Assembly (NCBI GenBank): GCA_028714455.1
Contig: JAQTMG010000001.1
Location: 64,568 to 128,567 of the forward strand
Length of the DNA stretch: 64,000 nt
From: Patescibacteria group bacterium
GTDB lineage: Bacteria; Patescibacteriota; Patescibacteriia; CAIXNZ01
Reading direction: 5' to 3'
This document shows positions 2,325-50,651 of this stretch, piece after piece; position 1 is the stretch's first letter, and every line of letters begins with the position of its first letter. A model generated the notes under the pieces. That model worked only from the letters and a program-made list of their open reading frames with translations. It did no database searches and had not been told where the DNA came from. The translations under genes were made by a program, and so were the position numbers.

Positions 2325-2353
2325 TTGACAAAAATCATTTTTAGCGCTATCAT
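2325..2353 (+). promoter_or_regulatory. sigma70-like promoter TTGACA-17-TATCAT
   Basis: Perfect -35, 17-nt spacer, TATCAT -10. Followed by AAAAAGGAGGGAAG and an ATG at 2377. Confidence 0.5.
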
Positions 2354-2376
2354 TACATAAATAAAAAGGAGGGAAG

Positions 2377-2523
2377 ATGAAAAAAGAAAAAGTGGCGACT
2401 GGCGTTGCCAAAAAAATGACCAACTGGATGCTTCGGGGGAAAAGGCATCAGGTCATTCCCAACAAAAAACGCGACACACGCCACCCCAAGCACCGGCCAG
2501 ATTATCGCAATTGCGATGACTAG
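2377..2523 (+). CDS. 48-aa highly basic small protein of unknown function
   Basis: Not in the ORF track (shorter than 60 aa). MKKEKVATGVAKKMTNWMLRGKRHQVIPNKKRDTRHPKHRPDYRNCDD. Strong SD, its own promoter and terminator, elevated GC. Confidence 0.4.
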   Translation: MKKEKVATGVAKKMTNWMLRGKRHQVIPNKKRDTRHPKHRPDYRNCDD

Positions 2524-2577
2524 GCCGGTTTTTTTATAAAGAAAAAACCCGTTCCACTTTCCGTGAAACGGGCTTTG
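2524..2577. terminator. bidirectional intrinsic terminator
   Basis: CCCGTT..AACGGG stem flanked by T/A runs on both strands. Serves the small + gene and the minus-strand SLT gene. Confidence 0.5.
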
Positions 2578-2586
2578 TTTGGCGAG

Positions 2587-3135
2587 TTATCCTCCCCAGC
2601 AGTGCCTGGAAGCGTTCCACTTCCAAATATTGCCGGCTTTGATTTGTCCAATCGCCCACTTAGTCGCGAAAATCGGGTCGTTGGCATTCTTCTTGCTAAC
2701 CCCTGGATTGTGTTCAGGGACAATCTGGAATAAACCGTAATCACCGGTTGGTCCAGACACTTGCGGCCTCCAACCACTTTCGCATTTGATTATGCGATAC
2801 AGCAGATCCACATTTTCGAAGCTTGCTTCTTCTGCCAGATCGCGCACCAGCTGCTTTAGATTGGCTGGCTTGGCTTTGCTAGTTTTTTTCTTGGGCGAAA
2901 AATAAGCCCAAAATTTGCCCTTGCTATCTTTGCGCAAAGTAATTTTGACGTCATTATAGGCAACTCGCTTGCCGTTTGACATCTCGATCAAAACGCTTTC
3001 CATCACGTTTTCTTTTTCTGAAGAAACTTTCTGGACCTGGCGCGATTTGTCATGCGTTCTGGTAGCCAGAGTCAAAAAGGCGAGGCACAAAATTCCTGCC
3101 TCCATCAGCACTATTTTGAGATAAAATTTTTTCAA
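2587..3135 (-). CDS. secreted lytic transglycosylase (SLT-domain) like protein
   Basis: Signal/TM N-terminus. The ..CESGW.....GDYGLFQI.. motif resembles the SLT catalytic ES-GLMQ signature. Confidence 0.6.
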   Translation of the reverse strand: MKKFYLKIVLMEAGILCLAFLTLATRTHDKSRQVQKVSSEKENVMESVLIEMSNGKRVAYNDVKITLRKDSKGKFWAYFSPKKKTSKAKPANLKQLVRDLAEEASFENVDLLYRIIKCESGWRPQVSGPTGDYGLFQIVPEHNPGVSKKNANDPIFATKWAIGQIKAGNIWKWNASRHCWGG

Positions 3136-3279
3136 GGTACCCTCCTTGCCGCTTACGGCTGATATTGGTTATCAATGTTTTTTCGCCTTAACCAATTCCC
3201 CTATATTTATAATTTTATAGTTTATCACATAAAAATGATTCTGTCAATTTTAAAACCCCCTGACCGGGGGCTTTAAATT

Positions 3280-4421: not shown

Positions 4422-5054
4422 TTATTGAACTAAAATTTCTCTGTAAATCACATTCTCGCTGCTGTGTTTTTTCGATGCTGATATTTTAATGGTATTCAAG
4501 CCTTTTTGCAAATCCAGCGTGGCTAAAAAACCTCCATTAGGGTCTATAAATATTTCCTTACCGTTAATAAAAACTCTGGCCTCTTTTTCTGTTTCACCTT
4601 TGACCTCAATGAAATTCTGGGTTGTGGTCAAGCTCTGCGGTGGCTGGTCGACTTCGAGAAATGGCGGTGTAAATATCTGATTAATCTGTATGCCTAAATA
4701 AATTAACAGGACCAGCAATATAATTCCCATGACGACGTAACGAAATAATTGGGGCGTCATGTAAACCTTGGTTTCCCCTTGAACTTTTTGTTTTTCCAGA
4801 TTTGCGCCCTTATTTATCTCCCGCCCTTTGTTAAAAAGATTTAACAATTTATTGTAATCAAGAGACAGATATTCGGCGTAGGACTTTATCAAATTTTTAG
4901 CGTACAAATCCTCCGGCAGTATCGCGTGGTCATCATTTTCCAGGGCCAGAATCATGCGCTTACTGATCTTGGTATCCTTTTCCACCTGTTCAATTTTGAG
5001 TCCTGCCTCTTCGCGATAGCGTTTTAAAACATGGCCGAGTGTCTCTTCTCTCAT
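4422..5054 (-). CDS. RodZ-like HTH/transmembrane protein
   Basis: N-terminal XRE-type HTH, a single TM helix, and a C-terminal extracytoplasmic domain. Confidence 0.55.
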   Translation of the reverse strand: MREETLGHVLKRYREEAGLKIEQVEKDTKISKRMILALENDDHAILPEDLYAKNLIKSYAEYLSLDYNKLLNLFNKGREINKGANLEKQKVQGETKVYMTPQLFRYVVMGIILLVLLIYLGIQINQIFTPPFLEVDQPPQSLTTTQNFIEVKGETEKEARVFINGKEIFIDPNGGFLATLDLQKGLNTIKISASKKHSSENVIYREILVQ

Positions 5055-5138
5055 AAATAAAATGTAATTTGAACCACGAAATTTTTATCGCTAAATACAC
5101 GAGAATTTCGTGAGTTTTTCGTGAATTATTTTCGTGGT

Positions 5139-7445
5139 TTAAAACTCATTATTCTTTTCAATTTCTTTTGCTTCCTCTTCGGCGTCAACCTCTTCTGATT
5201 CATCATCTGGTAATTCTAATTCTTCGTCTTCACTTTCTTCGTCAACTTCTTCCGAACCCTCATCGTTTGTTGGCAATTCTGCCTCGTTGTCATCAACTTC
5301 TCTTTCAGTCACTAAAATCTCTCTGGGTTTAGCGCCCTCGCCTGGCCCGACAATACCAGCCTCTTCCAGCAAGTCCATCAAACGCGCGGCTCGGGCGTAA
5401 CCGACTTTTAATCTTCTCTGCAAAAATGAAGTGGAAGCTTTGCCGGCTTGCAAAATTATTTCCTTAGCTTCTTCAAAAAGTTCATCGCCCTGATTTGGAT
5501 CAGAAAAATCAACGCTGCCGTCGCCGTTTAAAGATTGGTGTTTTTCCACAACCGCCCGGTCATAGTCGGGTTTTTCGCCGCTTTCTTTAAGGTAATCAAC
5601 CACGCGATTTATTTCTGCATCCGAGAGAAAGGCTCCTTGCAGACGTTTGGGCTTAGAAAGTTCGGCGCTGGTGTAAAGCATGTCGCCGCGGCCCAGAAGT
5701 TTTTCTGCGCCGGCGTGATCCAGGATTGTTCTGGAGTCAGTGATGGAAGCCACGGCAAAAGCGATTCTGCCGGGGATATTGGCTTTAATTAAGCCGGTGA
5801 TGACTTCAACCGATGGCCTTTGTGTCGCCAACACCAAATGGATACCAACGGCGCGAGACATTTGGGCCAAACGTATAATTAGACCCTCAACCTCATGACC
5901 CATGCTGGACATTAAGTCCGCCATTTCATCGACCACAAAAATTATATAGGGCATTTTTTCTTGAGAGATTTTATTAAAGTCATCGATATTTCTTTTGCCC
6001 ATTTTTTCCAAGACAATATAACGGCGATCCATTTCAGCTATGGTCCACTTCAAAGCGTTGACTGTTTTTTTCACGTCAGTGATAACTGGTGTCAGCAGAT
6101 GAGGTATCTCGTTATAAAGCGGCATTTCCACGCGTTTCGGGTCAACGATAATTAATTTTAAAGTGTCAGGACCATTTTGATAAAGTAAACTGGTTATGAC
6201 GGTGTGCAAGCAAACTGATTTGCCCGAACCAGTTTGGCCAGCGACTAATAAGTGCGGCATCTTGCCCAAATCAGCCACCCAGGTATTACCGGCTACATCG
6301 CGACCAAGCGGAATAGTCAGCAAGGTCTTGCGCTGTTTAAATTCCGGACTTTCCAAAAGCTCGCGTAAGCGTACGATGGCCACCGATTGATTGGGCACTT
6401 CAATGCCAACAAGCGACTTGCCGGGAATTGGCGCTTCAATTCTCAATGGGTGAGCGGCCAGGGCTAGGGCCAAATCATCTTGAAGCGCCGTGATGCGAGA
6501 AAGTTTAATGCCTTCGGCTGGTTTTAAAGTATATTGGGTAACTGTCGGGCCAACGCTAATGTCTCCCATCTCAACTGGTATGCCAAAACTCTCCAGGGTT
6601 TTTTGAATTATTTGTTTGTTGGCAGCGATGTTGCCCGAGGTCGGTTTGCTTAACTTGTCATCTAGCAAATCAAGGGGCAAATCTATTTTGTGATAAATCT
6701 TTTTTGTTTTTGGCTCATCGAGCTTGAATTCTTCTTTAGCCGATTCTTTTTCTCTAGTTTCGATTTTTTTGCTGGCAAAAGTAACCTCTTTTTCTTCTTC
6801 ATTTATAGCTTCGTTAGCTTCCTCGTCTTGTTCTTCTTCATTTTCATCGTACTCCTCCTCTCCGCGAGCAAATTTCAATTTTATGTGATAATACCAAATT
6901 GAAAGGCGATCAAAAATTTTGCCAAAAATCGAGCCTGATTCTCTGAAATTATCAATCGAATTATTAATCATTAACAAAATGGAGATGAAAAAAATCGCCA
7001 CCAGCGTGATCAGGGTCGCCCAAAAACCCATCACATTTTGTAAACTGTAGCTTAAAAATAATCCAACGTAACCGCCGCCACGCCCTTCATCAACGGCTAA
7101 GATAGCGTCACTCAATGGAATCACCAAGTGAAAAAGCGCCGTAAAACTCAAAACAAAGAAAAAGAAACCAACATAACTGATAGTGTTTATTTTTTCTTTT
7201 TTATTTAATAATACCCAGCCCCACAAAATTAAAATCACGGGAAAAGCGAATTTTGTCCAGCCCAAAAATAATGACAAAATTTTATCAATCTCTTCGCCCA
7301 CTCTACCCGCCAAATTAAATAAGCCAAGCAAAGAAATGCCGGCTATCGCGAATAAAAATATGATAAAAATCCACTTTTGCGTTTCTGGATGAATTTCTAC
7401 GCGTCTGATGCCATTTTTAGAGTTCCTATTTTTGTTTTTTGACAT
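5139..7445 (-). CDS. ftsK: DNA translocase FtsK/SpoIIIE with N-terminal TM domain, acidic linker and acidic C-terminal tail
   Basis: VAGQTGSGKSV Walker A, a full motor domain, and a gamma-like winged-helix followed by an E/D-rich extension. Confidence 0.9.
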   Translation of the reverse strand: MSKNKNRNSKNGIRRVEIHPETQKWIFIIFLFAIAGISLLGLFNLAGRVGEEIDKILSLFLGWTKFAFPVILILWGWVLLNKKEKINTISYVGFFFFVLSFTALFHLVIPLSDAILAVDEGRGGGYVGLFLSYSLQNVMGFWATLITLVAIFFISILLMINNSIDNFRESGSIFGKIFDRLSIWYYHIKLKFARGEEEYDENEEEQDEEANEAINEEEKEVTFASKKIETREKESAKEEFKLDEPKTKKIYHKIDLPLDLLDDKLSKPTSGNIAANKQIIQKTLESFGIPVEMGDISVGPTVTQYTLKPAEGIKLSRITALQDDLALALAAHPLRIEAPIPGKSLVGIEVPNQSVAIVRLRELLESPEFKQRKTLLTIPLGRDVAGNTWVADLGKMPHLLVAGQTGSGKSVCLHTVITSLLYQNGPDTLKLIIVDPKRVEMPLYNEIPHLLTPVITDVKKTVNALKWTIAEMDRRYIVLEKMGKRNIDDFNKISQEKMPYIIFVVDEMADLMSSMGHEVEGLIIRLAQMSRAVGIHLVLATQRPSVEVITGLIKANIPGRIAFAVASITDSRTILDHAGAEKLLGRGDMLYTSAELSKPKRLQGAFLSDAEINRVVDYLKESGEKPDYDRAVVEKHQSLNGDGSVDFSDPNQGDELFEEAKEIILQAGKASTSFLQRRLKVGYARAARLMDLLEEAGIVGPGEGAKPREILVTEREVDDNEAELPTNDEGSEEVDEESEDEELELPDDESEEVDAEEEAKEIEKNNEF

Positions 7446-8376: not shown

Positions 8377-8401
8377 TGCCCCGCACTAAATTTGCTAACT
8401 G

Positions 8402-8475
8402 TGGACGTGGATGGAATCGAACCATCGACCTCGTCATTATCAGTGACGCGCTCTAACCATCTGAGCTACACGTCC
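8402..8475 (-). tRNA. tRNA-Ile(GAT)
   Basis: rc: GGACGTG-TA-GCTC-AGATGGTTA-GAGC-G-CGTCA-CTGATAA-TGACG-AGGTC-GATGG-TTCGATT-CCATC-CACGTCC-A. Confidence 0.85.
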
Positions 8476-8575
8476 TTATTTAATAAAAAATTTTTAAAGC
8501 AAATTTCAGTGCGGGGTCAGTGACCGACCCCAAATCTTCAAAGCAGTGACCCCGCACCAATGCTTCGCATTGTGC

Positions 8576-8613
8576 GGGGCGCAGCGCGCTCTAACCATCT
8601 GAGCTACACGCGC
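8576..8613 (-). pseudogene. 5' fragment of a tRNA-Ile paralog (acceptor GCGCGTG, D-arm identical to the intact gene)
   Basis: rc: G-GCGCGTG-TA-GCTCAGATGGTTAGAGC-GCG, then CTGCGCCCCGCAC. The acceptor is complementary to the 3' half at 8337-8343. Confidence 0.45.
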
Positions 8614-8754
8614 CGATAAAAGTCTGTGATTATATAATTAAAACAATGCTTTCATTTTTTGATTAACAACGCGCTTTAACGCATTGCCTCATAAACTTTT
8701 ATCGGTGCACGCGCAAAAAAATTTATCAATAAGCGAATTATAACAAAAAAAATC

Positions 8755-8808
8755 GGCTTAATCAAGATCTTAACTGATATTAAATAAGCCGATTTTTTTT
8801 AAAAAGCG
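8755..8808. terminator. bidirectional intrinsic terminator downstream of 16S
   Basis: AATCGGCTTAAT...ATTAAATAAGCCGATT hairpin with T8 / A7 on either side. Confidence 0.5.
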
Positions 8809-8914
8809 TCTTTAACTGCTAAAAAGTGATAGAATCAAAATCCAGAAAATTTGTTTCGTTAGAAACAACCGACCTGATTAGAGCTGGCCCGAAAGCCGAG
8901 CTCATTACTCCTTA

Positions 8915-10406
<1,492 letters not shown>

Positions 10407-10815
10407 CAAATAAAATCTGATTGTAACCGTCAGAAGGATCTCCGCCGAAGGCGGATCCGCCTCTGGCGGAAAACTCTCAAATAAAATGATGATAAGGTTC
10501 ATCACAAAAACCTTCCCCAGTTGGGGAAATAAGGAATTGATTCTATCACTTTTTAGTTGTCAAAGAAGAAAAAACAGGGAAATCCATTGTCCATTAAAGT
10601 ATCCCGCGCGCGGGATTTTTAACAGATCGAATTTCTCTGTTTTTTCTCCTCCCCATCGGAGCTATTGCAAAGATGGGATATCTTTGAAAAATAAATTTTT
10701 TTACTTTTTTGAGAACTTTTTAAAGTTAATTTTAGATACTGGCATTATAAACTTTATTATTTAAGCTGTCAAGGGGTTAAAGCGGCCTTTTAATAAACAA
10801 CTTTTGCACAATAAA

Positions 10816-11571: not shown

Positions 11572-11588
11572 GGCTATACCATATCAAA

Positions 11589-11660
11589 TGACGCAAATTA
11601 CGTCAAATTTTCAAAGAAGTAAATCGCTAATTTTAGATAAAATACCATGTCATATGACAT
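11589..11660. promoter_or_regulatory. two dyad-symmetric candidate operators in the divergent promoter region
   Basis: TGACG-caaatta-CGTCA (11589-11605) and the perfect 14-bp palindrome ATGTCATATGACAT (11647-11660). Confidence 0.3.
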
Positions 11661-13121: not shown

Positions 13122-13130
13122 TTTTTTGTT

Positions 13131-14910: not shown

Positions 14911-15014
14911 TCTTCTTCTGTTTTTGAGAAAAAGAAAAACCCCGGTCCAGATTGCTTTTGACAAAATTGACCGGGTTTAAAATTCAAGTGCTTAAAAGAT
15001 CAAGAGACAAAAGG

Positions 15015-15785
15015 TCAAGAACTGAACTTCCGGGCGAGCGCAACGCGCAAACCGCCGGGGAAGCCGTAGGCCGAGTGGGTGCCGACACAGAGGCCATTGG
15101 AATTAAAGCAGCCGACAACGATGCAGACGCCAACGAAAGACGTCGAAGCACCCCAATGGTACCAACTCTCGGCAATTCGCTCGCCATCATTAACCATATA
15201 AATGGTCAGGATGGCTTCGGCAAAGACGGCCTCATGGCAGCGTTCGTAGTCGGCACCGAGTTTAGCGATTTTTGCGTCTTGCTTACCACAGTTCAAATTG
15301 GTAAACTGGCCGCGAAAGTTGATGAGGTAATAGCCGGTTTGGGGCATGAAAGTCGCCCACTTGTCCTCGTCGCTCTCGAGCCACCAGTCGTCGTCGTTAA
15401 AACAGGGCAGCTTGGTTTTGTCAACGCCGCGCTTTTCTCTTTGCTCGCGCAGGGAAAGGCCATTGATAAAGACCAGACGCCAGTCGGACTGACCGCTCTG
15501 GTTTTCATTGGCGCACTCGAGCAGGGTTTCTTCACTGTAGCGGATGGTTGCGCTTTTTGGCACTTCAATTTCCCAGGCCTTGCCAGCCTGCTCGGCAATG
15601 ATGACCTTGTTGGCGCCAAGAATGTTGATGGCGCGAACAATGGTCAGCCCCTTGGAAAACTTTTTGGGATTTTCCAGAAAAGCGCCAAGTTCCTCGCCTC
15701 CGACTGTTCCGTCCTTGATCATGCGCATCAGATCTTCCAGTTGCCCAGGTGTTACCGAGCAACCAATGACGACTTTTTTCTTCAT
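15015..15785 (-). CDS. hypothetical protein in a GC-elevated cassette-like unit
   Basis: Balanced composition, unlike the overlapping + ORF. AAAGGAGGAA SD 8 nt before the second ATG (MKKKVVIG..). Its own TTGACA-17-TATTAT promoter lies at about 15833-15862 (minus strand). A terminator hairpin lies at 14935-14985. Confidence 0.6.
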   Translation of the reverse strand: MKKKVVIGCSVTPGQLEDLMRMIKDGTVGGEELGAFLENPKKFSKGLTIVRAINILGANKVIIAEQAGKAWEIEVPKSATIRYSEETLLECANENQSGQSDWRLVFINGLSLREQREKRGVDKTKLPCFNDDDWWLESDEDKWATFMPQTGYYLINFRGQFTNLNCGKQDAKIAKLGADYERCHEAVFAEAILTIYMVNDGERIAESWYHWGASTSFVGVCIVVGCFNSNGLCVGTHSAYGFPGGLRVALARKFSS

Positions 15786-15938
15786 CGCCATTTCCTCCTT
15801 TACGTTTATAGCCCGCCGGCTTATTAATACTTAATAATATCGCAGTTTCACATCTTTGTCAACAATAAAACCACGGTTTATTCGAGGGTTATTAATTATA
15901 AAAAATATTTCCTTTTCCCAATACCCAATTCCAAATAC

Positions 15939-24485: not shown

Positions 24486-24651
24486 TCTTAGCAAAAAAAA
24501 TCCCGTCAACGCGGAATTTAGTTGCCACTATCTATTGACAAAATTAAAAAAATATGCTATTATATTATTATTAGAATAACGATTCTTTAAAAATAAAGGT
24601 TCTATCGGTCGGATATATACACGCTCAAAAAACCCAAAAAGGAGGGTAAAA

Positions 24652-25056
24652 ATGTCAAAGGTGAAAGAGGTACTTAAGAAGCTTAAGGACTTCGAGAATG
24701 CGGCGGCCTGTGTGGTGATCATCTTGGCGTTAGTCTGCTTCGGGGCGATCCTGCATACCAAGCTGTCGAACCAGCCGAGCCAAGAGCTTTCCGAAATCCC
24801 CCTCGTCACGCGACCCATTTCGGAAAAAATGGGGTTAGTCGAGGGCAGACCGCAATCACTGGACAATCACACGCTACTCTATGTTGTCAGGGTCATGCTG
24901 GATGATGGCAGCATGGTACCGGCACTGGTGGTCAACCCGTACGACCCCCAAAACCCGAAAGTGTTTTCTGGACAAAAAATCAAAGTCAGGTGCAAGTCGT
25001 ATGGCTATGGAGAAAACCATCTGGCTCATGAAACGTGCTTGATCATACAATACTGA
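24652..25056 (+). CDS. membrane-anchored hypothetical protein (cassette-like unit, elevated GC)
   Basis: TTGACA-17-TATTAT promoter at 24535-24563. AAAAAGGAGGGTAAAAATG SD. Confidence 0.5.
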   Translation: MSKVKEVLKKLKDFENAAACVVIILALVCFGAILHTKLSNQPSQELSEIPLVTRPISEKMGLVEGRPQSLDNHTLLYVVRVMLDDGSMVPALVVNPYDPQNPKVFSGQKIKVRCKSYGYGENHLAHETCLIIQY

Positions 25057-25134
25057 ACCTAAATATAACAACAAACCGCCAACAGCAATGCTGGCGGTTT
25101 TTTCTTTTTCAAAAAATAAATGCTAAACTTAAGT

Positions 25135-27460: not shown

Positions 27461-27691
27461 ATGTCTGATAAAATTTTAAACATAAAAGTAATCCCCAACG
27501 CCAAGGTCAATAAAATTTCGGCCGAAGATGGCGTTTTTAAAATAAAGATTTGTGCGCCGGCTCATGAAGGCAAAGCCAACAAGGCGCTCATTAAATTTCT
27601 AAGCGAACACTTCGGCGTCCCTAAAAGCAAAATTAAGATCATCTCCGGTGAAAAAGCCAGGGATAAAAAAGTGAGACTAGCTGGATCTTGA
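27461..27691 (+). CDS. DUF167 (YggU-like) family protein
   Basis: MSDKILNIKV.PNAK.NKI...DGVFKIKI.APA.EGKANKALIKFLSEHFGVPKSKI.I.SG..R.K.V. Confidence 0.7.
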   Translation: MSDKILNIKVIPNAKVNKISAEDGVFKIKICAPAHEGKANKALIKFLSEHFGVPKSKIKIISGEKARDKKVRLAGS

Positions 27692-27813
27692 CAAAAAAAT
27701 AAAATAATAATAATCTAAGTGTATCTTTTGGGAAAAGGTATTTTATGGTGAGCCGGGGATACTAAACATGGATCTTTCAAAAAAGTCCTCAAAATGAGGC
27801 GGGGAGGAGCAAG

Positions 27814-28218
27814 ATGAAGAGATTGTTTGTGTTTTTGATCATGATCCTGGCGCTGACGATGCTAATGCCCACGAAGAGCAAGGCGTTCAATGACGAGAAC
27901 ACGGGCCAGCAGACCATCGCGATGACGACTTCCGGCGACCTGTCCAGCTCCCTCGCAGTGGCGGGCATGGACCAAGCCAACTTCCAGAACACGGATATTA
28001 TCCTGGGAGATCCCACGGATATCGCGAACTTGCCGGACGCGAAGATTCTGATGACGAAGACGGAGAAAAGCGTGTTCGAGCAAACGGTCGAGACGACCAG
28101 TTACAAGACCTTCGGTCTCAACACCGGCCAAATGATTATCGTGGCCCAAAATCATGACCAGCAGACCCGCCAATACGCGGAAGAAACCTGGACAAGCTGC
28201 GGCAACCACTCGCCCTAA
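27814..28218 (+). CDS. secreted hypothetical protein (cassette-like unit, elevated GC)
   Basis: Signal peptide. Promoter TTGACA-17-TAATCT at 27688-27716. GGGGAGGAGC SD. Terminator at 28240-28272. Confidence 0.55.
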   Translation: MKRLFVFLIMILALTMLMPTKSKAFNDENTGQQTIAMTTSGDLSSSLAVAGMDQANFQNTDIILGDPTDIANLPDAKILMTKTEKSVFEQTVETTSYKTFGLNTGQMIIVAQNHDQQTRQYAEETWTSCGNHSP

Positions 28219-28239
28219 TCTTACTACCAACAAAAACAT

Positions 28240-28272
28240 CGAGGCGGCTCGCCAAGAGCCGCCTCTTTTTTA
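28240..28272 (+). terminator. intrinsic terminator
   Basis: GAGGCGGCTC-gccaa-GAGCCGCCTC followed by TTTTTTATT. Confidence 0.6.
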
Positions 28273-28378
28273 TTGACAAATTCCTTATTAAATAATAAGA
28301 TGCCGAGTACTTGATGTTTAAAAAAATAAAAAACGTTAAATTTCGAGCGTCTCGAAAAAACGAGACAAGGGAGGTAAC

Positions 28379-28909
28379 GTGAAAAAACTGGTTTTGTTGG
28401 CGGCACTTTTGGTCATCTCAACCTGCCTGCTGGAGGCAAAAAACTCCGACCGTCATTCATTCACCAACAAAAAAAGCGGCTATGCTCTTTCGTGTCCCGA
28501 CGGCTGGACCATGGCTTATGAGGAACAAATCAATCTCCTAAGTCTGTACTCGCCTGACGCGAAAAAGCACCCGAACGACACGCTGGATCTGGAACGCGGG
28601 TTAAAGATCGAGCTGACACCGATGAAAAACGCGGCTGACTTTGACGAAATTATCAAGCCGAAAGACGACAGCGGCCAGACCTGTTCGTACAAACCCAGAA
28701 GCATCCTTATCCTGGGCAAGGAAAAAGTCCAAATCTACGCCTGCGACGACGGCGAAACTCTGTTTCTGGCCGCGCTAAGGCAGGATGGCAAAAAATTTAT
28801 CGCGGCCTTTGGCTACGTCCCTGAAAAAGACAAGTGGAATTTTTACACGGATGAATTTGCCAAGACGCTTTCTCGCCTCAAATTCATTGAAACAAGCGGC
28901 TCCAAGTGA
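28379..28909 (+). CDS. secreted/lipoprotein-like hypothetical protein (GTG start; cassette-like unit)
   Basis: Promoter TTGACA-17-TAAGAT at 28274-28302. GGGAGGTAAC SD. Signal peptide. Terminator at 28889-28925. Confidence 0.5.
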   Translation: MKKLVLLAALLVISTCLLEAKNSDRHSFTNKKSGYALSCPDGWTMAYEEQINLLSLYSPDAKKHPNDTLDLERGLKIELTPMKNAADFDEIIKPKDDSGQTCSYKPRSILILGKEKVQIYACDDGETLFLAALRQDGKKFIAAFGYVPEKDKWNFYTDEFAKTLSRLKFIETSGSK

Positions 28910-29001
28910 GCCGCTTTTCTTTTTTCGTGTTTGACAAACCAGAACCATAAAGAATAAAATCAATTAACTGGACCTTTAAAAATCAAAGGAGGACGAATCA
29001 A

Positions 29002-30078
29002 ATGAAATTAAAAAAATTTCAAGGCGCGCTTGCTCATTTGGCTTTTGACCCCGGAAAATCAAGGGGCCGTCTTGGCTGCTCTTGCGCCGGACCAAAACGT
29101 TTCGATGATGACGATTTTTTGTCCAAAAACGTTAACCTCTTCCAAGTTGATATCGTAAAAATTCTCAACAGCAAAGCGCTGCGCCGGGCCTCGGGCAAGA
29201 CCCAGGTTTTCCCGATTCCAAACAACCCCCATATCCGTACGAGGCAGCTGCATACGCTTGAAGTTGCAGCCGTGGCCATACCGATCGCCAGCATCTTGGG
29301 CCTGAACGTGGAGCTTTGCGAGGCCATCGCCTATGGCCACGACATCGGCCACGCGCCGTTTGGGCACTTTGGCGAACGTTATATCACGGAAAAGTCAAAC
29401 AAACCCTTCTTGCACGCGGTCAGTTCGGCCATCGTGGCCCAAAGGATTGAAAGGAAAGGAAGCGGGCTTAATCTCTGTTTTGAGACGTTGCAAGGGATAT
29501 TAACCCATTCGGGCACAAGAGACTTTGGTGTCAAATTCAATCAGGCTCTGCCCCAGGAATATCTGACCGTGAAGCTGGCCGACAAAATCGCCTTTACTTT
29601 CTCCGATTACAACGACGCCGAGCGAGTCGGCATGATCACCGAGCCAAATGATTCTGGCATCTTTTCTCTCGGCGATTATCAGCGTGTTCGGGTGGCCAAG
29701 TGCATTGAGGCGGCCGTAATTGAAAGCGCGGAAAAGGGCCATGTCTCATTCAAAGAATCTAAGGCCGCGAAAAAATTCATGAAATTACGCGAGTGGCTCT
29801 TTGAAAAGGTCTATCTGCCAATCAATTTTGATGTCCAGCGAGCCTACCTGGATCGGCTGTTAGACTTTCTCACCAAAGATTCTCATTTTGAAGGCTGCGA
29901 TCCATTTCTGCTCATCTCACTAATGACTGACCAAGAAGTTTTCAAATTTGGTGAATTTTGCAACAGCGCGACCATCCCCAAATTCGAAGCGCTCCAGAAT
30001 TTCGGCGTAATCGAAATACTGGACTGGCTCCGGGGAAAAAAGTTTGATTTCTCCAGTTTCGATCTGAAACAAGTCTAA
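29002..30078 (+). CDS. dGTP triphosphohydrolase-like HD-domain phosphohydrolase
   Basis: ..ALRRASGKTQVF.....HIRTRQLHTLEVA.....GHDIGHAPFGH. matches the dGTPase N-terminal/HD motifs. AAAGGAGGACG SD. GC-elevated. Confidence 0.75.
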   Translation: MKLKKFQGALAHLAFDPGKSRGRLGCSCAGPKRFDDDDFLSKNVNLFQVDIVKILNSKALRRASGKTQVFPIPNNPHIRTRQLHTLEVAAVAIPIASILGLNVELCEAIAYGHDIGHAPFGHFGERYITEKSNKPFLHAVSSAIVAQRIERKGSGLNLCFETLQGILTHSGTRDFGVKFNQALPQEYLTVKLADKIAFTFSDYNDAERVGMITEPNDSGIFSLGDYQRVRVAKCIEAAVIESAEKGHVSFKESKAAKKFMKLREWLFEKVYLPINFDVQRAYLDRLLDFLTKDSHFEGCDPFLLISLMTDQEVFKFGEFCNSATIPKFEALQNFGVIEILDWLRGKKFDFSSFDLKQV

Positions 30079-30085
30079 CCAAAAA

Positions 30086-30118
30086 ACGCCTGGAATAATC
30101 CGGGCGTTTTTCTTTTTA
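30086..30118. terminator. bidirectional intrinsic terminator
   Basis: ACGCCTGG-aataat-CCGGGCGT hairpin followed by TTTTTCTTTTT. Confidence 0.5.
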
Positions 30119-34867: not shown

Positions 34868-34958
34868 AAGGGAGCATATCAAAGTGCTTCTTTTTATTTT
34901 TAACCTTTGAAAAATAAAAGCCGCCTCAACTTTTCAGTATCGGCGGCTGTAGCGCTAG

Positions 34959-35147
34959 TTATACAGGCTTTCTTTTCAGCACGATCACATACTCTGCGGG
35001 CTTTATGCCCGTGAGCACAGGGATTATTCCGAGCTGCGAAAGGTCAACAGAGTTGGCCTTGATTTCCAGCGTCGGGTCTTCCTTGTACTTTGCCGTGGCC
35101 TCTTCAAGATCTCCCTCTTCAACAATGATAACAATCGCACTCGCCAT
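34959..35147 (-). CDS. 62-aa acidic small protein (cassette-like unit)
   Basis: MASAIVIIVEEGDLEEATAKYKEDPTLEIKANSVDLSQLGIIPVLTGIKPAEYVIVLKRKPV. AAGGAGGTAAAAATG SD. TTGACA-17-TACATT promoter (minus strand). Terminator hairpin at 34911-34950. Confidence 0.5.
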   Translation of the reverse strand: MASAIVIIVEEGDLEEATAKYKEDPTLEIKANSVDLSQLGIIPVLTGIKPAEYVIVLKRKPV

Positions 35148-35330
35148 TTTTACCTCCTTGGGTAGATTTGGTTGTATTTTACAACACGATTTCTTTACCA
35201 AAATGTATCTCAAATAATAAATTATGTCAATAGTGTAATTACTGGTTTTATTTAACTCATTTTCATGATAAAATTATAAGAGTTTAGTATTAATTAATAC
35301 ACCCGCTGGAGTGGGAATAAAATAAAATTT

Positions 35331-45760: not shown

Positions 45761-48112
45761 ATGAAGCGTATTTTAATAGTAATTCCTGCCTACAATGAAG
45801 AAAAAATAATCGCTCAAAATCTCGAGCGTTTGGCTGATTTTTGCTCAAAAAATTTGATCGGAGATGAATTTAAAATTATTTTGGCTGATAATAATTCAAT
45901 TGATAAAACCTCCGAGATAGTCAAAAACTTGGCCGAAAAAGACAACATGATTATTTATCGTTACTATGATAAAAAGGGCAAGGGTCTGGCGGTTTTAAAC
46001 ACCTGGAGAAATGAAGCAAATAATTTTGATATTTTTGTCTTTATGGACGCTGACCTATCAACTGATTTATCAGCGTTGACTCCGCTCTTATTGGCTATTG
46101 TCCAGGGGAGCGATATAGCAGTTGGCTCACGCTATTTAAAAGATTCGGTTGTTAGGAGGCAATTTTCAAGAAGATTTTTTTCTCGCGGTTATAATACATT
46201 TTTTAGGTTCTTGCTTGGTGCTAAAATAAGTGATTATGCTTGCGGTTTTAAGGCGGTCAGCAAAAAAGTGGTGGCAGAGCTGGTTCCGAAAATAAAAAAC
46301 GATCAGTTCTTCTTTGATTCAGAGCTGCTTTTCCGAGCGGAAAAAGCACAATCTAAAATAAAAGAAATTCCAGTGAAATGGGCGGAGCCTCGCCAGAGTA
46401 ATGAAAGTAAAGTTAGCGTGTTAAAAGTTGCCTGGCGATATTTCAGAGAAATTTTGCGTCTGAAAAGAGAAAGCAACCCAAATAAATTAAGCCGCAATGA
46501 AATTAAATTTATCTGGTTAGTCGGTCTTATTTTGATTGCGGTTACGGCGCTGCCTTATCTGTATGGTTATCTTTCGAGAGGCGACCTTTATTACACGGGC
46601 GCTCATATATTTTCACCCGTAGATACACCAGTTTATTATTCTTATATTGAACAGGCAAAAGACGGACATTTTTTATTCGGCGATTTATTTTCCAATGAAC
46701 TTAACGAGCCGAGACTATTTAACCCGTTTTGGCTGTTAGTCGGGTTCGTGGCAAAAATTTTTAATCTGTCAGCTCCAATCGCGGTCCAAGTTTTTAGAAT
46801 AATTTTAATCCCCATATTTTTATTTGTTCTTTATAAATTTATTAGTTTTTTTATCGGCGAAAAGTATACCGTGACAAGAAAAAAAATGTGTTTTTTGTAT
46901 TCAATTTTTGCGACAGGTCTGGGCGGATTTTTTTATTACTGGCTGCACGCCGACATGAATAACGGCAACAGCTTTAATCTGGCCATGGATATGTGGGTAC
47001 CCGAAGCAAGTAATTTTTTAATAATATTTACATCGCCACATTTTATCGCTTCAATCACTTTAATAATCTCAATTTTCTATTTATTTTGGCTCTCGCTGGA
47101 CACTTTAAAATTTAGATATTCTATTGCCGCTGGTTTAGCCGCCCTTTTTTTGTTCGGTTTTCATCCATTTTTTATTCCCACAATTTATTTTATATCTTTT
47201 GTTTATTTAATTTTTCTTTTTTTAAAAAACAAAAAAATTGACCTTAAGCCAATTTTAAATTATTTTTTGCTGGTAATTATTTCGTTGCCGTCAGCACTTT
47301 ATTATTTGTATCTGCTCTTAACTGATTCAAGTCTAGGGGTTAAAGCAGCGCAGAATATTTGTCTGACGCCAGGAGGAATTAATTTTTTTATAAGCTATGG
47401 GCTTGGTTTATTTTTTGCGATTTTCGCCGTGGTGTACTTAGTTGAGAGCAAGCGAGCCAATAACAAATTATTCTTTCTTATTATTTGGTTTTGGTCGTCG
47501 ATTTTGCTGATTTACGGCCCTTTTAATTTTCAGCGACGCTTAACCGAAGGGTTTCAAGTTCCTTTAACTATTTTGGCTTTCATCGGTTTCGTAATAATTT
47601 GGGATTTATTGAAAACAAAATGGAAAATTTTTAGAGAAGCAAAACTTTGGCAAATACTCCCGTTTTTTATTTTTTTCTTTTGTTTCACCAATATCTTGGT
47701 TTATTACGGAGATTTTAGATTCCTCGCTTCCAAACCCGAGATTGTTTATATCGAGAAGGGAACAAAGACAGCCATGGATTGGTACAGAGTCAATTCTGGT
47801 TATGAAGACACGATTTTAGCTTCTCGAATCGATGGTAATTTAATTCCAGGCGTAATCGGCAGGAGAGTGTTCCTGGGCCATGATGTTGAAACGATAAATT
47901 ATAAACAGAAACTGGCCGAGATTATGAATTTTTTTGGCGGTAATAATGATGACCAGAAAAAGATAAATTTTTTGAAAGAAAACCGTATTGATTATTTATT
48001 TTACTCTGTTTCAGAAAAACGGCTCGGAAATTTTAACCCGTCAGTTAAGAATTATTTGGCTAAGATTTACGAAAAAAATGGCGTAGAGATTTTTAAAGTT
48101 ATTGGAGATTAA
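45761..48112 (+). CDS. GT2 glycosyltransferase (polyprenol-phosphate sugar synthase-like) fused to a large polytopic GT-C-like membrane domain
   Basis: N-terminus: ..VIPAYNEE..ADNNS.D.T......DADLS.. (GT2 DxD). C-terminus: about 12 TM helices. Confidence 0.75.
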   Translation: MKRILIVIPAYNEEKIIAQNLERLADFCSKNLIGDEFKIILADNNSIDKTSEIVKNLAEKDNMIIYRYYDKKGKGLAVLNTWRNEANNFDIFVFMDADLSTDLSALTPLLLAIVQGSDIAVGSRYLKDSVVRRQFSRRFFSRGYNTFFRFLLGAKISDYACGFKAVSKKVVAELVPKIKNDQFFFDSELLFRAEKAQSKIKEIPVKWAEPRQSNESKVSVLKVAWRYFREILRLKRESNPNKLSRNEIKFIWLVGLILIAVTALPYLYGYLSRGDLYYTGAHIFSPVDTPVYYSYIEQAKDGHFLFGDLFSNELNEPRLFNPFWLLVGFVAKIFNLSAPIAVQVFRIILIPIFLFVLYKFISFFIGEKYTVTRKKMCFLYSIFATGLGGFFYYWLHADMNNGNSFNLAMDMWVPEASNFLIIFTSPHFIASITLIISIFYLFWLSLDTLKFRYSIAAGLAALFLFGFHPFFIPTIYFISFVYLIFLFLKNKKIDLKPILNYFLLVIISLPSALYYLYLLLTDSSLGVKAAQNICLTPGGINFFISYGLGLFFAIFAVVYLVESKRANNKLFFLIIWFWSSILLIYGPFNFQRRLTEGFQVPLTILAFIGFVIIWDLLKTKWKIFREAKLWQILPFFIFFFCFTNILVYYGDFRFLASKPEIVYIEKGTKTAMDWYRVNSGYEDTILASRIDGNLIPGVIGRRVFLGHDVETINYKQKLAEIMNFFGGNNDDQKKINFLKENRIDYLFYSVSEKRLGNFNPSVKNYLAKIYEKNGVEIFKVIGD

Positions 48113-49976
48113 ATTTACCGAGCGATTTTTCACTGTCAATTACCGAAGAAATACTACCAATGCCGTTCAATTCATAACCGCCGCTCATACTTAAAATTTC
48201 AACATTATTTACTTTTGGCAGGTCATAAAAATTAATCTGGACTATCTGGCCAGTTTGCCAGCTGCTGGTCGGGTAAAAGCCATAGCCGAGAGCATAAATT
48301 TGGCCGTCAAGCTTGATTAAATAGTTTTCGCTGATTTGCTTCAGCGGTCGGAAATAAAGCGAGATAATATTGCCAGTTTGATTTGAGCCAAGAAATTCTA
48401 TCTGATCAGCCAGTTTTATATTCTGGCTGTTTTTTATTTCAGGCATTTTTTGGAAGATAGTATAAAGAGTTGGTTCCGCACCTTGGTAATTTCGTTGCCA
48501 GAGCGCCAGATTCCCGCTGACCATTTTCAAGTGATAATTTTTGTCTAGCAGCAGCTTTCTCATATTGGCCGCGCCCTGATAATAATATTCTTTGGCCGCT
48601 GTTTCATATTGCAAATGGAAACCGACAAAGTCATTAAAATTTAAAAGCAGATATTCAGTCTCGTTAGGCACAATGTAATCGCCGGCATTGTACTGCTGTT
48701 TTCCCAGAAAAACATAATTGAGTGAATATAATTTTTCTCTGGAGGAAAGATTGGAAATAAAATCATAATCAGTAATCAGCGAGGCTCCCGCCGGAATTTG
48801 TCTGACAAAATAATTTTTTTGCGCCACATCCTTGTAATTTATAGTGGCAATATCTGTAACTAAGGGAATAAGCGGGCCTAAAATCAAGAAATTATAAATA
48901 AGCGTTATGGCCAAGGCGATAAGAATTAGATCTTTGAATTTGTTATAGAAAATTAATGCCTTTTGGTTTTTTGACAATGATTCAAGTGAAAAAATCGTGG
49001 CGATTGAGAGAGCGAAAATAAAAGGCGTGGCGTAGTGCGTTCTCAAGATTGATTCGCCTGAAGCAAAGCCAAGAACTATTTCCATGAATTGGCCCAAGCA
49101 GAGGAGTAAGTATTTTGGGCGGTAAATCGGCAAAAAAATAAAAACCAGCAAAAAACCCAAAACCAATTCGACGTTGGCTAAGTTGACGACGTGCTGAAGC
49201 ACGAGCGGAAACTGGAGAAAAAAATTTTTGGCTATCTCCGGCAACGAAGTGCCCAGCCATTTGTAGTAGATTAAAAATTTATATTGAGATGAGGCGGAAA
49301 AAAACGAGACCATTTTTAGGGCGCCCAAAAAATATAAAGCTGAACCTATGGTCGCGGTTAAAATCCACTTCGGCTTTTTCTTATCAATGATGGCCACGAT
49401 GCCAAACATAAAAATCACAAAAGCCAGGTCTTCTCTGATCATCAGCGTTAAGATAGAAAGGATGATAAATGGCCAAAATTTATTTTCATCGTAAAAATAA
49501 AAGACCCAGAAAAGAAAAAACATGGCCAGGGCGAGCATGTGAAATTCAAAAAAATTAATATTCAGAGTCACCGGATTGAAGAGATATAAAATAATGGCCA
49601 GGAGCGCTGTCTGGGGCCGAAGATGCTTTTTACAAATTAAATAAAGCGGAATTGCTGAAAGCGCCAGGAATAATGATTGCATCAGTAACAAACTGATTGG
49701 CGATTTGTACAGAGAATATAGCGGCGCCAAAAATAAAATCATTATTTCAAAATGATCACCTAGATACAGAGTGGGATGAATCGTGAATTGAAATAATTTA
49801 CCGATTGAGGTATTGTAGAAAACCTGGTTGAAAATCGCCAAATCAAGGGCGTTATATTGATAGGTAAAGTATTTAAAGAGACAGGCGGAAAAGGTGAAAA
49901 TAAAATAAATAAAGACCAAAATCCAGGTAATTTTAGCCAATTTTTGCCAATTCAGAGTTTTAAAGTAATTAACCAT
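48099..49976 (-). CDS. DUF2079-family polytopic membrane protein with an extracytoplasmic C-terminal domain
   Basis: ..YNALDLAIFNQ...HFE.. motif typical of DUF2079. Confidence 0.6.
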   Translation of the reverse strand: MVNYFKTLNWQKLAKITWILVFIYFIFTFSACLFKYFTYQYNALDLAIFNQVFYNTSIGKLFQFTIHPTLYLGDHFEIMILFLAPLYSLYKSPISLLLMQSLFLALSAIPLYLICKKHLRPQTALLAIILYLFNPVTLNINFFEFHMLALAMFFLFWVFYFYDENKFWPFIILSILTLMIREDLAFVIFMFGIVAIIDKKKPKWILTATIGSALYFLGALKMVSFFSASSQYKFLIYYKWLGTSLPEIAKNFFLQFPLVLQHVVNLANVELVLGFLLVFIFLPIYRPKYLLLCLGQFMEIVLGFASGESILRTHYATPFIFALSIATIFSLESLSKNQKALIFYNKFKDLILIALAITLIYNFLILGPLIPLVTDIATINYKDVAQKNYFVRQIPAGASLITDYDFISNLSSREKLYSLNYVFLGKQQYNAGDYIVPNETEYLLLNFNDFVGFHLQYETAAKEYYYQGAANMRKLLLDKNYHLKMVSGNLALWQRNYQGAEPTLYTIFQKMPEIKNSQNIKLADQIEFLGSNQTGNIISLYFRPLKQISENYLIKLDGQIYALGYGFYPTSSWQTGQIVQINFYDLPKVNNVEILSMSGGYELNGIGSISSVIDSEKSLGKFNLQ

Positions 49977-50029
49977 ATGCTTTCAGTTTAAGCCAAAAGC
50001 GGCGGAAAATAAAGATGACCATTGACAGA

Positions 50030-50058
50030 ATTCATTAAATATGTTAGAATACTAGAAT
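50030..50058 (+). promoter_or_regulatory. sigma70-like promoter TTGACA-17-TAGAAT
   Basis: Precedes CTAAAGGAGGGAAGAAATG of the lipoprotein gene. Confidence 0.45.
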
Positions 50059-50117
50059 AGTTTGGTTCGTTTTATTGAAAAAATAATAACTCCAAAAAAC
50101 CCTAAAGGAGGGAAGAA

Positions 50118-50651
50118 ATGAAAAAGATTAGCGTGTTAATCGTCTTTGCGATGGTCACATTTTTTGTGGCCTCGTGCATGGAAGTCAAGCGACCCGGCCT
50201 CACGGCTCGAGTGATTGACCCCAGGGTCACCAAAACCCTGGCCGATCCCAAGGCCGATTACACCAACGGCGTGGCGCCGGCCATCGCCCAGATCTTGCCG
50301 AAGAACCCCAACGCGACAGTGATCATCTCTAAAAATGGAGACGTCACCTACATCGGGGACAACGGCAACGGCGGACAGCAGATGGGCATTTTCGAGAACC
50401 ACGCCAAACACGGCATCTTGGTGCGTGTCTACCGCGATGGGGAAGAAAAGCTTAGCTTTGAGGTCACACCTCGCGGCTACAAGCGGCTTTTTCTCCTGCC
50501 CGGGGAGTATGGCCTTAAGGTCATGGCGCCGGATCTGGTCACTATCTTGGCTGAAGGGGATTTCAGCGTCGACGCGATCGGAGCTGACAACTTCAGCGAG
50601 TACGCCAACATGCGGGTGGGTTTCATCCGCCAATATTATCCGGTCAGATAA
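50118..50651 (+). CDS. lipoprotein of unknown function (GC-rich cassette-like unit)
   Basis: Signal peptide with ..FFVASC lipobox-like Cys; about 58% GC. The overlapping minus/plus ORFs are antisense artefacts. Confidence 0.55.
   Translation: MKKISVLIVFAMVTFFVASCMEVKRPGLTARVIDPRVTKTLADPKADYTNGVAPAIAQILPKNPNATVIISKNGDVTYIGDNGNGGQQMGIFENHAKHGILVRVYRDGEEKLSFEVTPRGYKRLFLLPGEYGLKVMAPDLVTILAEGDFSVDAIGADNFSEYANMRVGFIRQYYPVR

Follow-up and report, generated by a model that had tools for sequence, protein, structure and literature searches.

Lineages that make little use of the Shine-Dalgarno (SD) sequence raise the old question of why the anti-SD at the 3′ end of 16S rRNA is kept. In Bacteroidia its retention is explained by one autoregulated gene together with rRNA processing. 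In genomes of GeneMarkS-2 group C, as Lomsadze et al. reportedly found in 2018, internal operon genes generally use the SD. Phage morons, reportedly described by Juhala/Hendrix in 2000, are said to be single genes of unusual base composition that each have a promoter and a terminator, and chromosomal accessory-gene hotspots, of which Oliveira et al. reportedly gave an account in 2017, are said to hold different genes per genome in the same slot between conserved neighbours. Bacteroidia have SD-blind ribosomes and a strong-SD rpsU gene (Jha et al. 2020, PMC7797042; McNutt et al. 2023, PMC9976891; Naeem et al. 2026, PMC13000453), and in Flavobacterium it is ribosomes lacking bS21 that translate rpsU (PMC9976891; PMC13000453). 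The canonical anti-SD motif CCTCCT is undetectable in about half of Parcubacteria, where SD helices have been inferred not to form (PMC9297842). Here we analyse a stretch of 64,000 nt (the window; assembly GCA_028714455.1, contig JAQTMG010000001.1, positions 64,568 to 128,567) from a Patescibacteria group bacterium, in which nine genes, each with a strong SD, its own consensus promoter and its own terminator, are scattered among genes that mostly have no SD. We consider it probable, though well short of certain, that they form a clade-specific, selection-maintained class of autonomous monocistronic SD-dependent genes, native rather than foreign cassettes, in an otherwise leaderless, short-leader or coupled genome.

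Genes were called heuristically as the longest open reading frames (ORFs), taken greedily, with starts fixed by hand and ORFs in RNA genes dropped; no trained gene finder was used. SD strength was the duplex energy (dG) between the window's own 16S tail, CAUCUCCUUUCU, and positions -20 to -3 of each start. Of the ~65 genes, nine (~14%, about one in seven) have energies of -9.0 to -11.5 kcal/mol; the remaining 56 have a mean of -1.1 and a standard deviation of 2.5 kcal/mol (Mann-Whitney p=1.7e-6). The distribution is bimodal rather than a continuum, with 53 of the 56 above -6 kcal/mol and just three intermediates, at -8.7 (the 16640 gene), -7.2 (dnaA) and -6.1 (a pilin gene of a type IV secretion system, T4SS). 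The nine units are given here with the coding sequence (CDS), dG in kcal/mol, and G+C content overall (GC) or at third codon positions (GC3).

Unit 1, 2325..2576, plus strand: CDS 2377-2523, a 48-aa basic peptide, dG -9.4, GC3 0.59; promoter 2325-2353, TTGACA-17-TATCAT; SD AAAAGGAGG at 2364-2372; bidirectional terminator 2544-2576.
Unit 2, 2544..3247, minus strand: CDS 2587-3135, TTG start, 182 aa, dG -9.0, GC3 0.52; promoter 3247-3219, TTGACA-17-TAAACT, with TG; SD AAGGAGG at 3141-3147; terminator 2576-2544, common with unit 1.
Unit 3, 14936..15862, minus strand: CDS 15015-15785, 256 aa, dG -9.1, GC 0.53, GC3 0.65; promoter 15862-15834, TTGACA-17-TATTAT; SD AAAGGAGG at 15794-15801; terminator hairpin ~14936-14978.
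Unit 4, 24535..25100, plus strand: CDS 24652-25056, 134 aa with an N-terminal membrane anchor, dG -9.4, GC3 0.65; promoter 24535-24563, TTGACA-17-TATTAT, with TG; SD AAAAGGAGG at 24637-24645; terminator 25073-25100.
Unit 5, 27688..28265, plus strand: CDS 27814-28218, 134 aa with a signal peptide, dG -11.5, GC3 0.79; promoter 27688-27716, TTGACA-17-TAATCT; SD GGGAGG at 27802-27807; terminator 28241-28265.
Unit 6, 28273..28916, plus strand: CDS 28379-28909, GTG start, 176 aa with a signal peptide or lipobox, dG -10.6; promoter 28273-28301, TTGACA-17-TAAGAT; SD AAGGGAGG at 28367-28374; terminator 28894-28916.
Unit 7, 28931..30111, plus strand: CDS 29002-30078, 358 aa, HD domain, dGTPase-like, dG -9.2; promoter 28931-28960, TTGACA-18-TAAAAT; SD AAAGGAGG at 28985-28992; terminator 30082-30111.
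Unit 8, 34920..35230, minus strand: CDS 34959-35147, a 62-aa acidic protein, dG -10.0, GC3 0.57; promoter 35230-35202, TTGACA-17-TACATT; SD AAGGAGG at 35153-35159; terminator ~34920-34947.
Unit 9, 50022..50695, plus strand: CDS 50118-50651, 177 aa with the lipoprotein signal ...FFVASC, dG -9.5, GC 0.55, GC3 0.73; promoter 50022-50050, TTGACA-17-TAGAAT, with TG; SD AAAGGAGG at 50104-50111; terminator 50670-50695.

The signals are placed far more regularly than chance would allow. AGGAGG occurs 20 times in the window and nine copies lie 4-10 nt before the start of an ORF of at least 40 aa (binomial p ~3e-5); permuted hexamers of matched composition are so placed 0-5 times per 9-29 occurrences, mostly 0-3. 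The exact promoter TTGACA-16..18-TAnnnT has 15 sites, nine of them upstream of the nine SD genes, so that it precedes 9/9 of these genes versus ~4/56 others (Fisher p=2e-8), always with a spacer of 17-18 nt. All nine units close with a G+C-rich hairpin followed by a T-run, an intrinsic terminator. The same promoter type (TTGACAaa-17-TAnnnT) serves the organism's own rRNA, the 16S P1 promoter being TTGACA-17-TATAAT, and near-consensus promoters also precede rpmH, a KH-protein gene, the 18991 gene and the PBP1A gene. Two further exact matches have no assigned gene: one at 32942-32971 (minus strand), in the 5′ end of dnaN and facing the dnaA-dnaN spacer, and one at 48112-48139 (minus strand), where the convergent genes 45761-48112 and 48099-49976 meet. 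Integron cassettes were considered and rejected as an account of the units, since these have TTGACA-17-TAnnnT promoters of their own and their 3′ hairpins are terminators.

Composition separates the units as well. Their GC is 0.46-0.55 versus a mean of 0.42 for the other window genes, their GC3 0.52-0.79 (mean 0.63) versus a mean of 0.46 elsewhere (p ~8e-6), and the five highest GC3 values of the window all belong to units. They use more C/G-ending codons and avoid TTA, AGA and ATA, unlike every native gene class.

An earlier note on this DNA, made from the letters alone, had drawn attention to such a set of genes. Its observations that native genes lack an SD and that each unit has its own terminator held, and eight of its nine members were confirmed; one of these, 34959-35147, had to be moved to the minus strand. 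The ninth, the MgtC gene (26105-26557), which it had admitted as a partial member, drops out: it has no SD, a leader of ~26 nt, and syntenic orthologues of 54-73% identity in five sister loci. Its place is taken by the SLT-domain protein at 2587-3135 on the minus strand, which had been missed. The textbook promoters were found before all nine units, although, as seen above for the 16S P1, rpmH, KH-protein and 18991 promoters, they are not exclusive to them. GC is raised as described, but to 46-55% over a background of 42%, not to 50-58% over 45%.

Pairing was examined against the organism's own 16S rRNA, whose 3′ end carries a variant anti-SD.

8914..8926, minus strand: 16S rRNA 3′ tail, CCAUCUCCUUUCU, with the anti-SD core UCUCC where E. 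coli has CCUCC.

The tail reads ...GGACCAUCUCCUUUCU, and the variant anti-SD is UCUCCUUU. Since the tail of sister genome L002 is identical, the UCUCC core is a lineage trait and not a sequencing error. By inspection, AAAGGAGG can form seven Watson-Crick pairs and one G-U pair with UCUCCUUU, which is its presumed partner. The 16S gene lies at 8916-10413 on the minus strand, in the order 16S, tRNA-Ile, tRNA-Phe, tRNA-Pro, tRNA-Gly, then ftsK (8401-10413, minus strand); as no 23S gene follows the 16S and tRNA genes, the rRNA genes appear to be unlinked. An Rfam scan of the window at gathering thresholds returned the 16S rRNA and four tRNAs only, with no match in the unit leaders, and folding of these leaders revealed neither consistent sequestration of the SD nor a consistent 5′ stabiliser. 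At 774-860 (minus strand), between rpsF and ssb, a perfect AAAGGAGG is followed by ATG, but the ORF has just 22 aa and there is no recognisable promoter. On the plus strand, that of the rpsF-ssb-rpsR mRNA, the same bases read CCUUUCCUCCUUUAAACC, a mimic of the anti-SD tail. Both readings are probably due to chance.

The bulk of the genes begin differently. Where a native gene has a recognisable promoter, its leader is inferred to be 0-29 nt long and carries no SD; the corresponding lengths for SD genes are 16-90 nt here and, in relatives, 14-158 nt. Many native genes begin -4 to +9 nt from the preceding gene, a spacing that fits coupled initiation. No SD was found on rpsF, rpsR, rpsP or rpmH, and no ribosomal-protein gene is among the SD genes of the window. 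Upstream of rpsF (257-293) and tig (23127-23162), both on the plus strand, stand near-identical stretches of ~35 nt, AATTCATAATTCTTAATTCAT[C/A]ATTTCATAATT. These read as TTCATA-17-CATAAT promoters that end 7-8 nt before the ATG, which points to leaderless mRNAs for these two genes, both presumably highly expressed. Seven or eight small paralogues arranged in tandem at 50710-54477 (minus strand) also have no SD, with gaps of 2-23 nt between them; the one gene scanned matches the T4SS_pilin and TrbC/VirB2 families, so the array encodes type IV secretion pilins, not type IV pili. The strongest of the three intermediates, 16640-17062 (minus strand), encodes a four-helix-bundle protein (TIGR02436, with weak similarity to Avd of diversity-generating retroelements, DGRs) that is absent from sister loci. 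Since the GGAGA before its start lies within a bidirectional terminator hairpin (17065-17096), it is probably not a functional SD. The 80 Parcubacteria loci examined make little use of the SD throughout, and thus show no SD-rich pool in this group from which donors could have come.

The window organism is Falkowbacteria-like, of the candidate phyla radiation (CPR). Its trigger factor (tig, 23163-24485) shares 81-83% identity with the proteins of two Candidatus Falkowbacteria metagenome-assembled genomes (MAGs), 65-69% with those of MAGs labelled Uhrbacteria or Parcubacteria, and <45% with those of other Patescibacteria. The window was compared with sister loci L001, L002, L003, L005, L014 and L092, in all of which the gene order from trmD to beyond dnaN is kept, and in places also with L004, L095 and metagenome contigs.

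Several units keep their signals across these relatives. Unit 6 (28379) has syntenic orthologues in L001, L002, L003 and L005 that are just 26-37% identical, and in every one of them A(A/G)GGAGG stands 4-8 nt ahead of the start, with a TTGAC-type -35 box readable further upstream; in this family the leaders diverge in sequence and length while the signals stay. Orthologues of the HD gene 29002 (78% identity in L001, 61% in L003, 55% in L092), found between a DUF167 gene or the 28379 orthologue and yidD-rnpA-dnaA, each carry TTGACAAA and AAAGGAG(G/T); the gene is missing from L002 and L005. In the L092 HD gene (5001-6089) the database call starts from a GTG 18 nt upstream, passing over the SD-ATG.

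For the 15015 gene (unit 3), a metagenome scan was seeded with the narrow family alignment A2, as the 27-sequence alignment A1 was too diverse. The SD (GGAGG or GGAGA) is kept in 8/8 metagenome loci with readable upstream sequence and in the sister-MAG copy, L095; a syntenic copy in L005 keeps it too, and promoter and terminator are kept wherever the flanks are long enough to read. The GC of these genes is 0.48-0.54 in the metagenome loci and L095 (0.45-0.54 with L005), inside loci of 0.34-0.44, and the excess in the sister MAG is 20 points. Pooled over eight related loci, SD-led ORFs exceed the non-SD ORFs of their own locus in GC3 by 0.094 (n=31 versus 119, p=9e-7). The composite signature of promoter, SD and ORF has a density per 10 kb of 1.4 in the window, 1.2 in close relatives (130 kb) and 0.07 in 1.19 Mb of other Parcubacteria. 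The last figure is roughly the level of permuted-motif controls, which makes the signature a trait of this clade.

Two observations concern a further position. Sister genomes L001, L002, L003, L005 and L092 have an SD-led gene for a 65-79-aa zinc-ribbon (CxxC...CxxC) protein between the metallophosphoesterase and mgtC positions. At the same position the window has a unit of ~240 nt (25704-25994, minus strand) with a TTGACG-16-TATAAT promoter and a strong terminator, in which no convincing ORF and no Rfam match were found (an E-value scan of 25650-26100 gave chance-level hits only). It may be a decayed gene or a small RNA.

Several units code for small exported proteins, as the earlier note had proposed, to judge from signal peptides and lipoboxes in the translations. 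PHROG and PADLOC matches were confined to the HD and SLT domains, the latter being the lytic-transglycosylase domain that follows an N-terminal hydrophobic anchor in the unit 2 protein. The unit 1 peptide had no Pfam, NCBIfam, PHROG or PADLOC match, and the model of the unit 6 protein from AlphaFold2 (AF2; predicted local distance difference test, pLDDT, 56) was too poor for use. Two units are orphans: unit 5, absent from sister loci, found only itself as a credible match among 1.84 billion representative proteins, and unit 9 only itself among 5.8 billion clustered proteins.

The 15015 family has ~90 members, every named source being Parcubacteria, Falkowbacteria, Uhrbacteria or Patescibacteria, and the window gene has a paralogue, P0015, in the same genome. 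The deposited NCBI product has 235 aa, 21 codons short of the 256 aa supported by the SD and by homologues. The AF2 model is good (pLDDT 88) and found no significant match in the PDB, the best being C-type-lectin-like folds with E of at least 0.36. In L095 (5700-7800) the family gene has as neighbours a reverse transcriptase (RVT_1) and a gene of 146 aa, both of them SD-led, and two 43-nt direct repeats, 84 nt apart, lie upstream of the reverse transcriptase. With the Avd-like 16640 gene and the alternating conserved and variable C-terminus, this neighbour gave leads to a role as DGR target. That candidate was rejected, because no template/variable repeat of the gene's 3′ 315 nt was found in the window or L095; nor was there a reverse transcriptase among the window genes scanned. 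Between stop and terminator, 3-6 copies of TTGA spaced ~8-10 nt apart (e.g. CCATTGACCATTGAATTTTTGACC...) follow the gene in most members of the family (L081, L082, L083, L085, L086, L088 and L089), and just two in the window (14979-15014, minus strand). Multi-frame stop codons or a protein-binding array are possibilities.

The 29002 protein had been likened in the earlier note to the dNTP hydrolases of anti-phage defence, an idea that found no support. Against the NCBIfam model antiphage_dGTPase (NF041026) it scores 78.9 bits, where the cut-off is 400; its best NCBIfam match, NF002327 (dGTP triphosphohydrolase), gives 189 bits (cut-off 393), so it falls below every curated cut-off, and the PADLOC dGTPase model aligns to residues 38-214 only (E=2e-33). 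The closest homologues make up an unbroken series of proteins of ~350 aa, which in the relatives examined are syntenic, and canonical dGTPases with an HD_assoc domain are the most distant among the matches listed. Of the homologues, one comes from a contig of 605 kb and one from a contig of 841 kb whose IF5A-like and wyosine-formation neighbour domains give it an archaeal look. The sub-cut-off scores, the numerous ~350-aa homologues and the conserved position together argue for a housekeeping nucleotide hydrolase rather than a defence gene, with some doubt left by its absence from L002 and L005. Nor does its setting look like a variable defence island: the site beside yidD-rnpA-dnaA is kept in L001, L003 and L092.

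Other units come and go. Relative to sister genomes, 24652, 27814 and 34959 are insertions. Unit 4 (24652) is inserted between tig and a metallophosphoesterase gene, where L001, L002 and L003 have a gap of ~65-190 nt; it has no homologue in sister loci or viral contigs. Compared with L002 and L003, the window has 1.4 kb inserted between dnaN and the 35331 gene, and unit 8 (34959) is part of this insertion. In the slot that follows tig, L001, L002 and L003 have no gene, and the window, L004, L005 and L014 have SD-led genes that are unrelated to one another, richer in GC and mostly for lipoproteins; the slot that follows trmD is likewise filled by differing SD-led genes in the window, L005 and L014. 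Over 15-38 kb, 5/6 SD genes are absent from sisters or at most 37% identical to their counterparts there, versus 3/20 non-SD genes (Fisher p=0.0045). Lineage-specific insertions and orphans, set in variable slots between core genes, make up three or four of the units. Presence or absence in sisters, a check that the earlier note had proposed, gives a mixed picture: 24652, 27814 and 34959 are absent, and 28379, 29002 and (in L005) 15015 are syntenic. Of the synteny with normal composition that the earlier note would have taken as a refutation, only half is seen, since the composition of the syntenic units is abnormal in the relatives too.

The flanks of the units are core genes (efp, recA, trmD, tig, rnpA, dnaA, dnaN). 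At the boundaries of the insertions there was no sign of an integrase or transposase, of a target-site duplication or of flanking repeats, and a Pfam scan of 30 window proteins, which did not take in every window gene, found no integrase domain. The four units searched had no viral relatives in IMG/VR, no relatives of the units were found in phage or plasmid records, and 24400-30200 had no blastn match in phage records. Phage morons or prophage cargo were dismissed on these grounds, the core-gene flanks and the want of viral relatives. Two neighbouring segments also vary. Between the 16S gene and trmD, 5 kb at 10816-15785 are absent from L002; the segment holds a TrmB-like helix-turn-helix regulator, a TrwB/VirD4-like coupling ATPase, a 572-aa hypothetical protein and unit 3, and could be what is left of an integrated element or the result of a rearrangement. 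At 33969-34867 (plus strand) are two genes absent from sisters (107 and 154 aa) with a GC of 0.30-0.34, no SD and no Pfam match. Accessory genes are therefore of two compositional types, of which just the GC-rich type is SD-led.

The working of the two classes that we propose, reading from sequence, is as follows. About 85% of genes would start at the promoter, 10-30 nt behind it, or a few nt after the preceding gene, with AU-rich upstream sequence and no SD, and would use leaderless, 5′-proximal or coupled initiation. The minority would be transcribed, presumably as monocistronic mRNAs, from a consensus sigma-70 promoter of the rRNA type to an intrinsic terminator, with a leader of 16-160 nt. 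The A-extended SD, AAAGGAGG, would pair with the variant tail 3′-UUUCCUCU-5′, the start codon lying 4-9 nt downstream; the long leaders would require this pairing, which we infer to drive initiation on unit mRNAs. A distinct initiation mode for the SD-led set, the other reading that the earlier note had offered, is plausible and would fit these data. The members of the set are mostly small, fast-evolving, lineage-restricted and often exported, many in variable slots between core genes, and some conserved, such as the dGTPase-like HD protein, a secreted protein family and, in relatives, the small zinc-ribbon protein. Signals and GC3 excess would be held by selection, e.g. for strong or separately controlled expression.

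Several points weigh against a native, selected class. The sample is small, 64 kb of the window genome and ~130 kb from close relatives with heuristic gene calls, and transcription starts, hence leader lengths, are read from predicted -10 boxes. The loci examined contain no orthologue of units 4, 5, 8 or 9, which leaves units 3, 6 and 7 as the evidence of signal conservation. A GC anomaly is a classic sign of transfer, and the composition and codon usage of the units are atypical, as expected of foreign DNA. Presumed highly expressed native genes (ribosomal proteins, EF-P, tig, recA) have a GC3 of 0.45 versus 0.63 in the units; as they do not differ in this from other genes, the excess is not the genome's ordinary expression-linked codon bias, and high-expression codon adaptation was rejected as its cause. 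All nine window SDs read GGAGG, which fits the canonical CCUCC, and none of the nine has GGAGA, the perfect complement of UCUCC; relatives have both forms. In the closest sister MAG (L095) the 15015-family gene has another location, with a reverse transcriptase as its neighbour, and its excess of synonymous identity with the window gene is 0.36, where core genes have a median of ~0.1 and a maximum of 0.53; such high identity could mean exchange within the clade. Many of these points would suit an accessory pool mobile within the clade, in which whole cassettes, from promoter to terminator, hop by recombination between Falkowbacteria and Uhrbacteria at core-gene hotspots, in the manner of phage morons, and their signals and GC reflect the source pool and not selection in the present host. 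The variable filling of the tig and trmD slots, the three insertions, the relocated 15015-family gene with its raised synonymous identity, a family GC near-constant at about 0.51-0.54 whatever the host GC (0.34 to 0.44), and a codon usage distinct from all native classes speak for it. This reading is partly compatible with a native class, and it explains the orphans and the constant family GC better. We nevertheless consider it unlikely: insertion boundaries lack any integrase, transposase, duplication or repeat, viral contigs and phage and plasmid records hold no relatives, no donor of ~54% GC was identified, and 28379 and the HD gene are stably syntenic where core proteins are only 50-80% identical. 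Amino-acid identities of the orthologues are below those of core genes, which argues against recent exchange. Synonymous-site identity, which might betray recent transfer, carries little weight either way, as the sites are near saturation and the unit values fall inside the core-gene range.

Import from SD-dependent, GC-richer donors outside the lineage, the explanation that the earlier note had preferred, would make signals and GC residues of the donor. The raised GC and GC3, the atypical codons, the canonical GGAGG of all window SDs and the two orphans with no traceable relatives are what one would expect of it. Syntenic orthologues of 28379, 29002 and 15015 in several related genomes, however, carry the same signals and GC excess, and the composite signature is clade-specific with a similar density among members. 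Nor did best-match taxonomy point to a donor lineage: named 15015 homologues are exclusively Parcubacteria/Patescibacteria, the nearest HD homologues belong to the ~350-aa series syntenic in relatives and the HD_assoc dGTPases are the most distant listed, and 50118 and 27814 have no homologues. The A-extended SD matches the organism's own variant 16S tail and the promoters match its own rRNA type, which also counts against a donor, and we regard such import as highly improbable. A regulon read by specialised ribosomes with a free 16S tail, through which surface or host-interaction proteins are switched together, would suit the sharply two-class initiation, an anti-SD retained though mutated, the enrichment of exported proteins among units and the Bacteroidia precedent (PMC9976891; PMC13000453). 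It seems to us very unlikely, given no sign of ribosome heterogeneity in this sequence analysis, the SD-less rpsF, rpsR, rpsP and rpmH with no ribosomal-protein gene among the SD genes, unit functions as mixed as an HD hydrolase, a transglycosylase and, in relatives, a zinc-ribbon protein, and pairing energies of -9 to -11.5 kcal/mol, ordinary SD strength and not below -13 as for Bacteroidota rpsU (PMC9976891). A bolder form, distinctly unlikely in our view, is that the Falkowbacteria/Uhrbacteria clade has kept its mutated anti-SD tail chiefly for a dedicated SD regulon of self-contained, GC3-enriched genes whose products are exported, fast-evolving and accessory. These would be translated in another mode than the leaderless or short-leader bulk, and the state of the ribosome or the accessibility of the tail might switch them together when the cell meets a host. 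Chance or an assembly or annotation artefact, for which the heuristic start calls and the metagenomic assembly might be invoked, is barely credible beside p values of 1e-5 to 1e-8 for motif placement, promoter association and GC3, and the same architecture in independent assemblies from other studies.

In this CPR lineage with its variant anti-SD, a sharply separated minority of genes is SD-led and differs from the rest also in promoter type, predicted leader length and monocistronic layout, GC3 and evolutionary volatility. Were the pattern genome-wide, it would give a sequence-only handle on the accessory, surface-exposed proteins of uncultivable episymbionts and a tractable case for dual-mode initiation outside Bacteroidia. 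It would also warn that gene callers mis-set starts here, as with the deposited 15015 start. Should the regulon reading be true, this would be a second, independent case of two-channel bacterial translation after bS21 of Bacteroidia, one that governs accessory functions and not a ribosomal protein.

Among described systems, Bacteroidia offer a close parallel: genes are largely without an SD while the 16S anti-SD is retained, and a small minority has strong extended SDs, which implies two initiation modes per cell. The differences are plain, however. Flavobacterium johnsoniae has one strong-SD gene, for an autoregulated ribosomal protein, and an anti-SD that is canonical but sequestered; here ~14% of the genes are SD-led with no ribosomal-protein gene among them in the window (rpsU is not present in it), and the anti-SD core itself is mutated. 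In contrast to the Bacteroidia case, each SD gene here comes with a consensus promoter, a long leader and a terminator of its own, GC3 is raised, and the genes are for the most part accessory or code for exported proteins. The anti-SD loss in Parcubacteria (Tsurumaki et al. 2022, PMC9297842) belongs to the same phylogenetic neighbourhood, and the window 16S likewise has no exact CCTCCT; in contrast to the inference that SD helices do not form, the tail here still offers UCUCCUUU and a defined gene class has sites complementary to it. As in groups C and X of GeneMarkS-2 (Lomsadze et al. 2018, PMC6028130), leaderless and SD-led starts coexist and there is an atypical gene fraction. Internal operon genes here, unlike those of group C, have no SD, and unlike in those groups it is the compositionally atypical, monocistronic, accessory genes that are SD-led. 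The units resemble morons and the contents of hotspots in being single genes of deviant composition with their own promoter and terminator, in variably filled slots; they differ from morons in having no prophage context, mobile-element genes or viral relatives, and in that several are stably syntenic across the clade.

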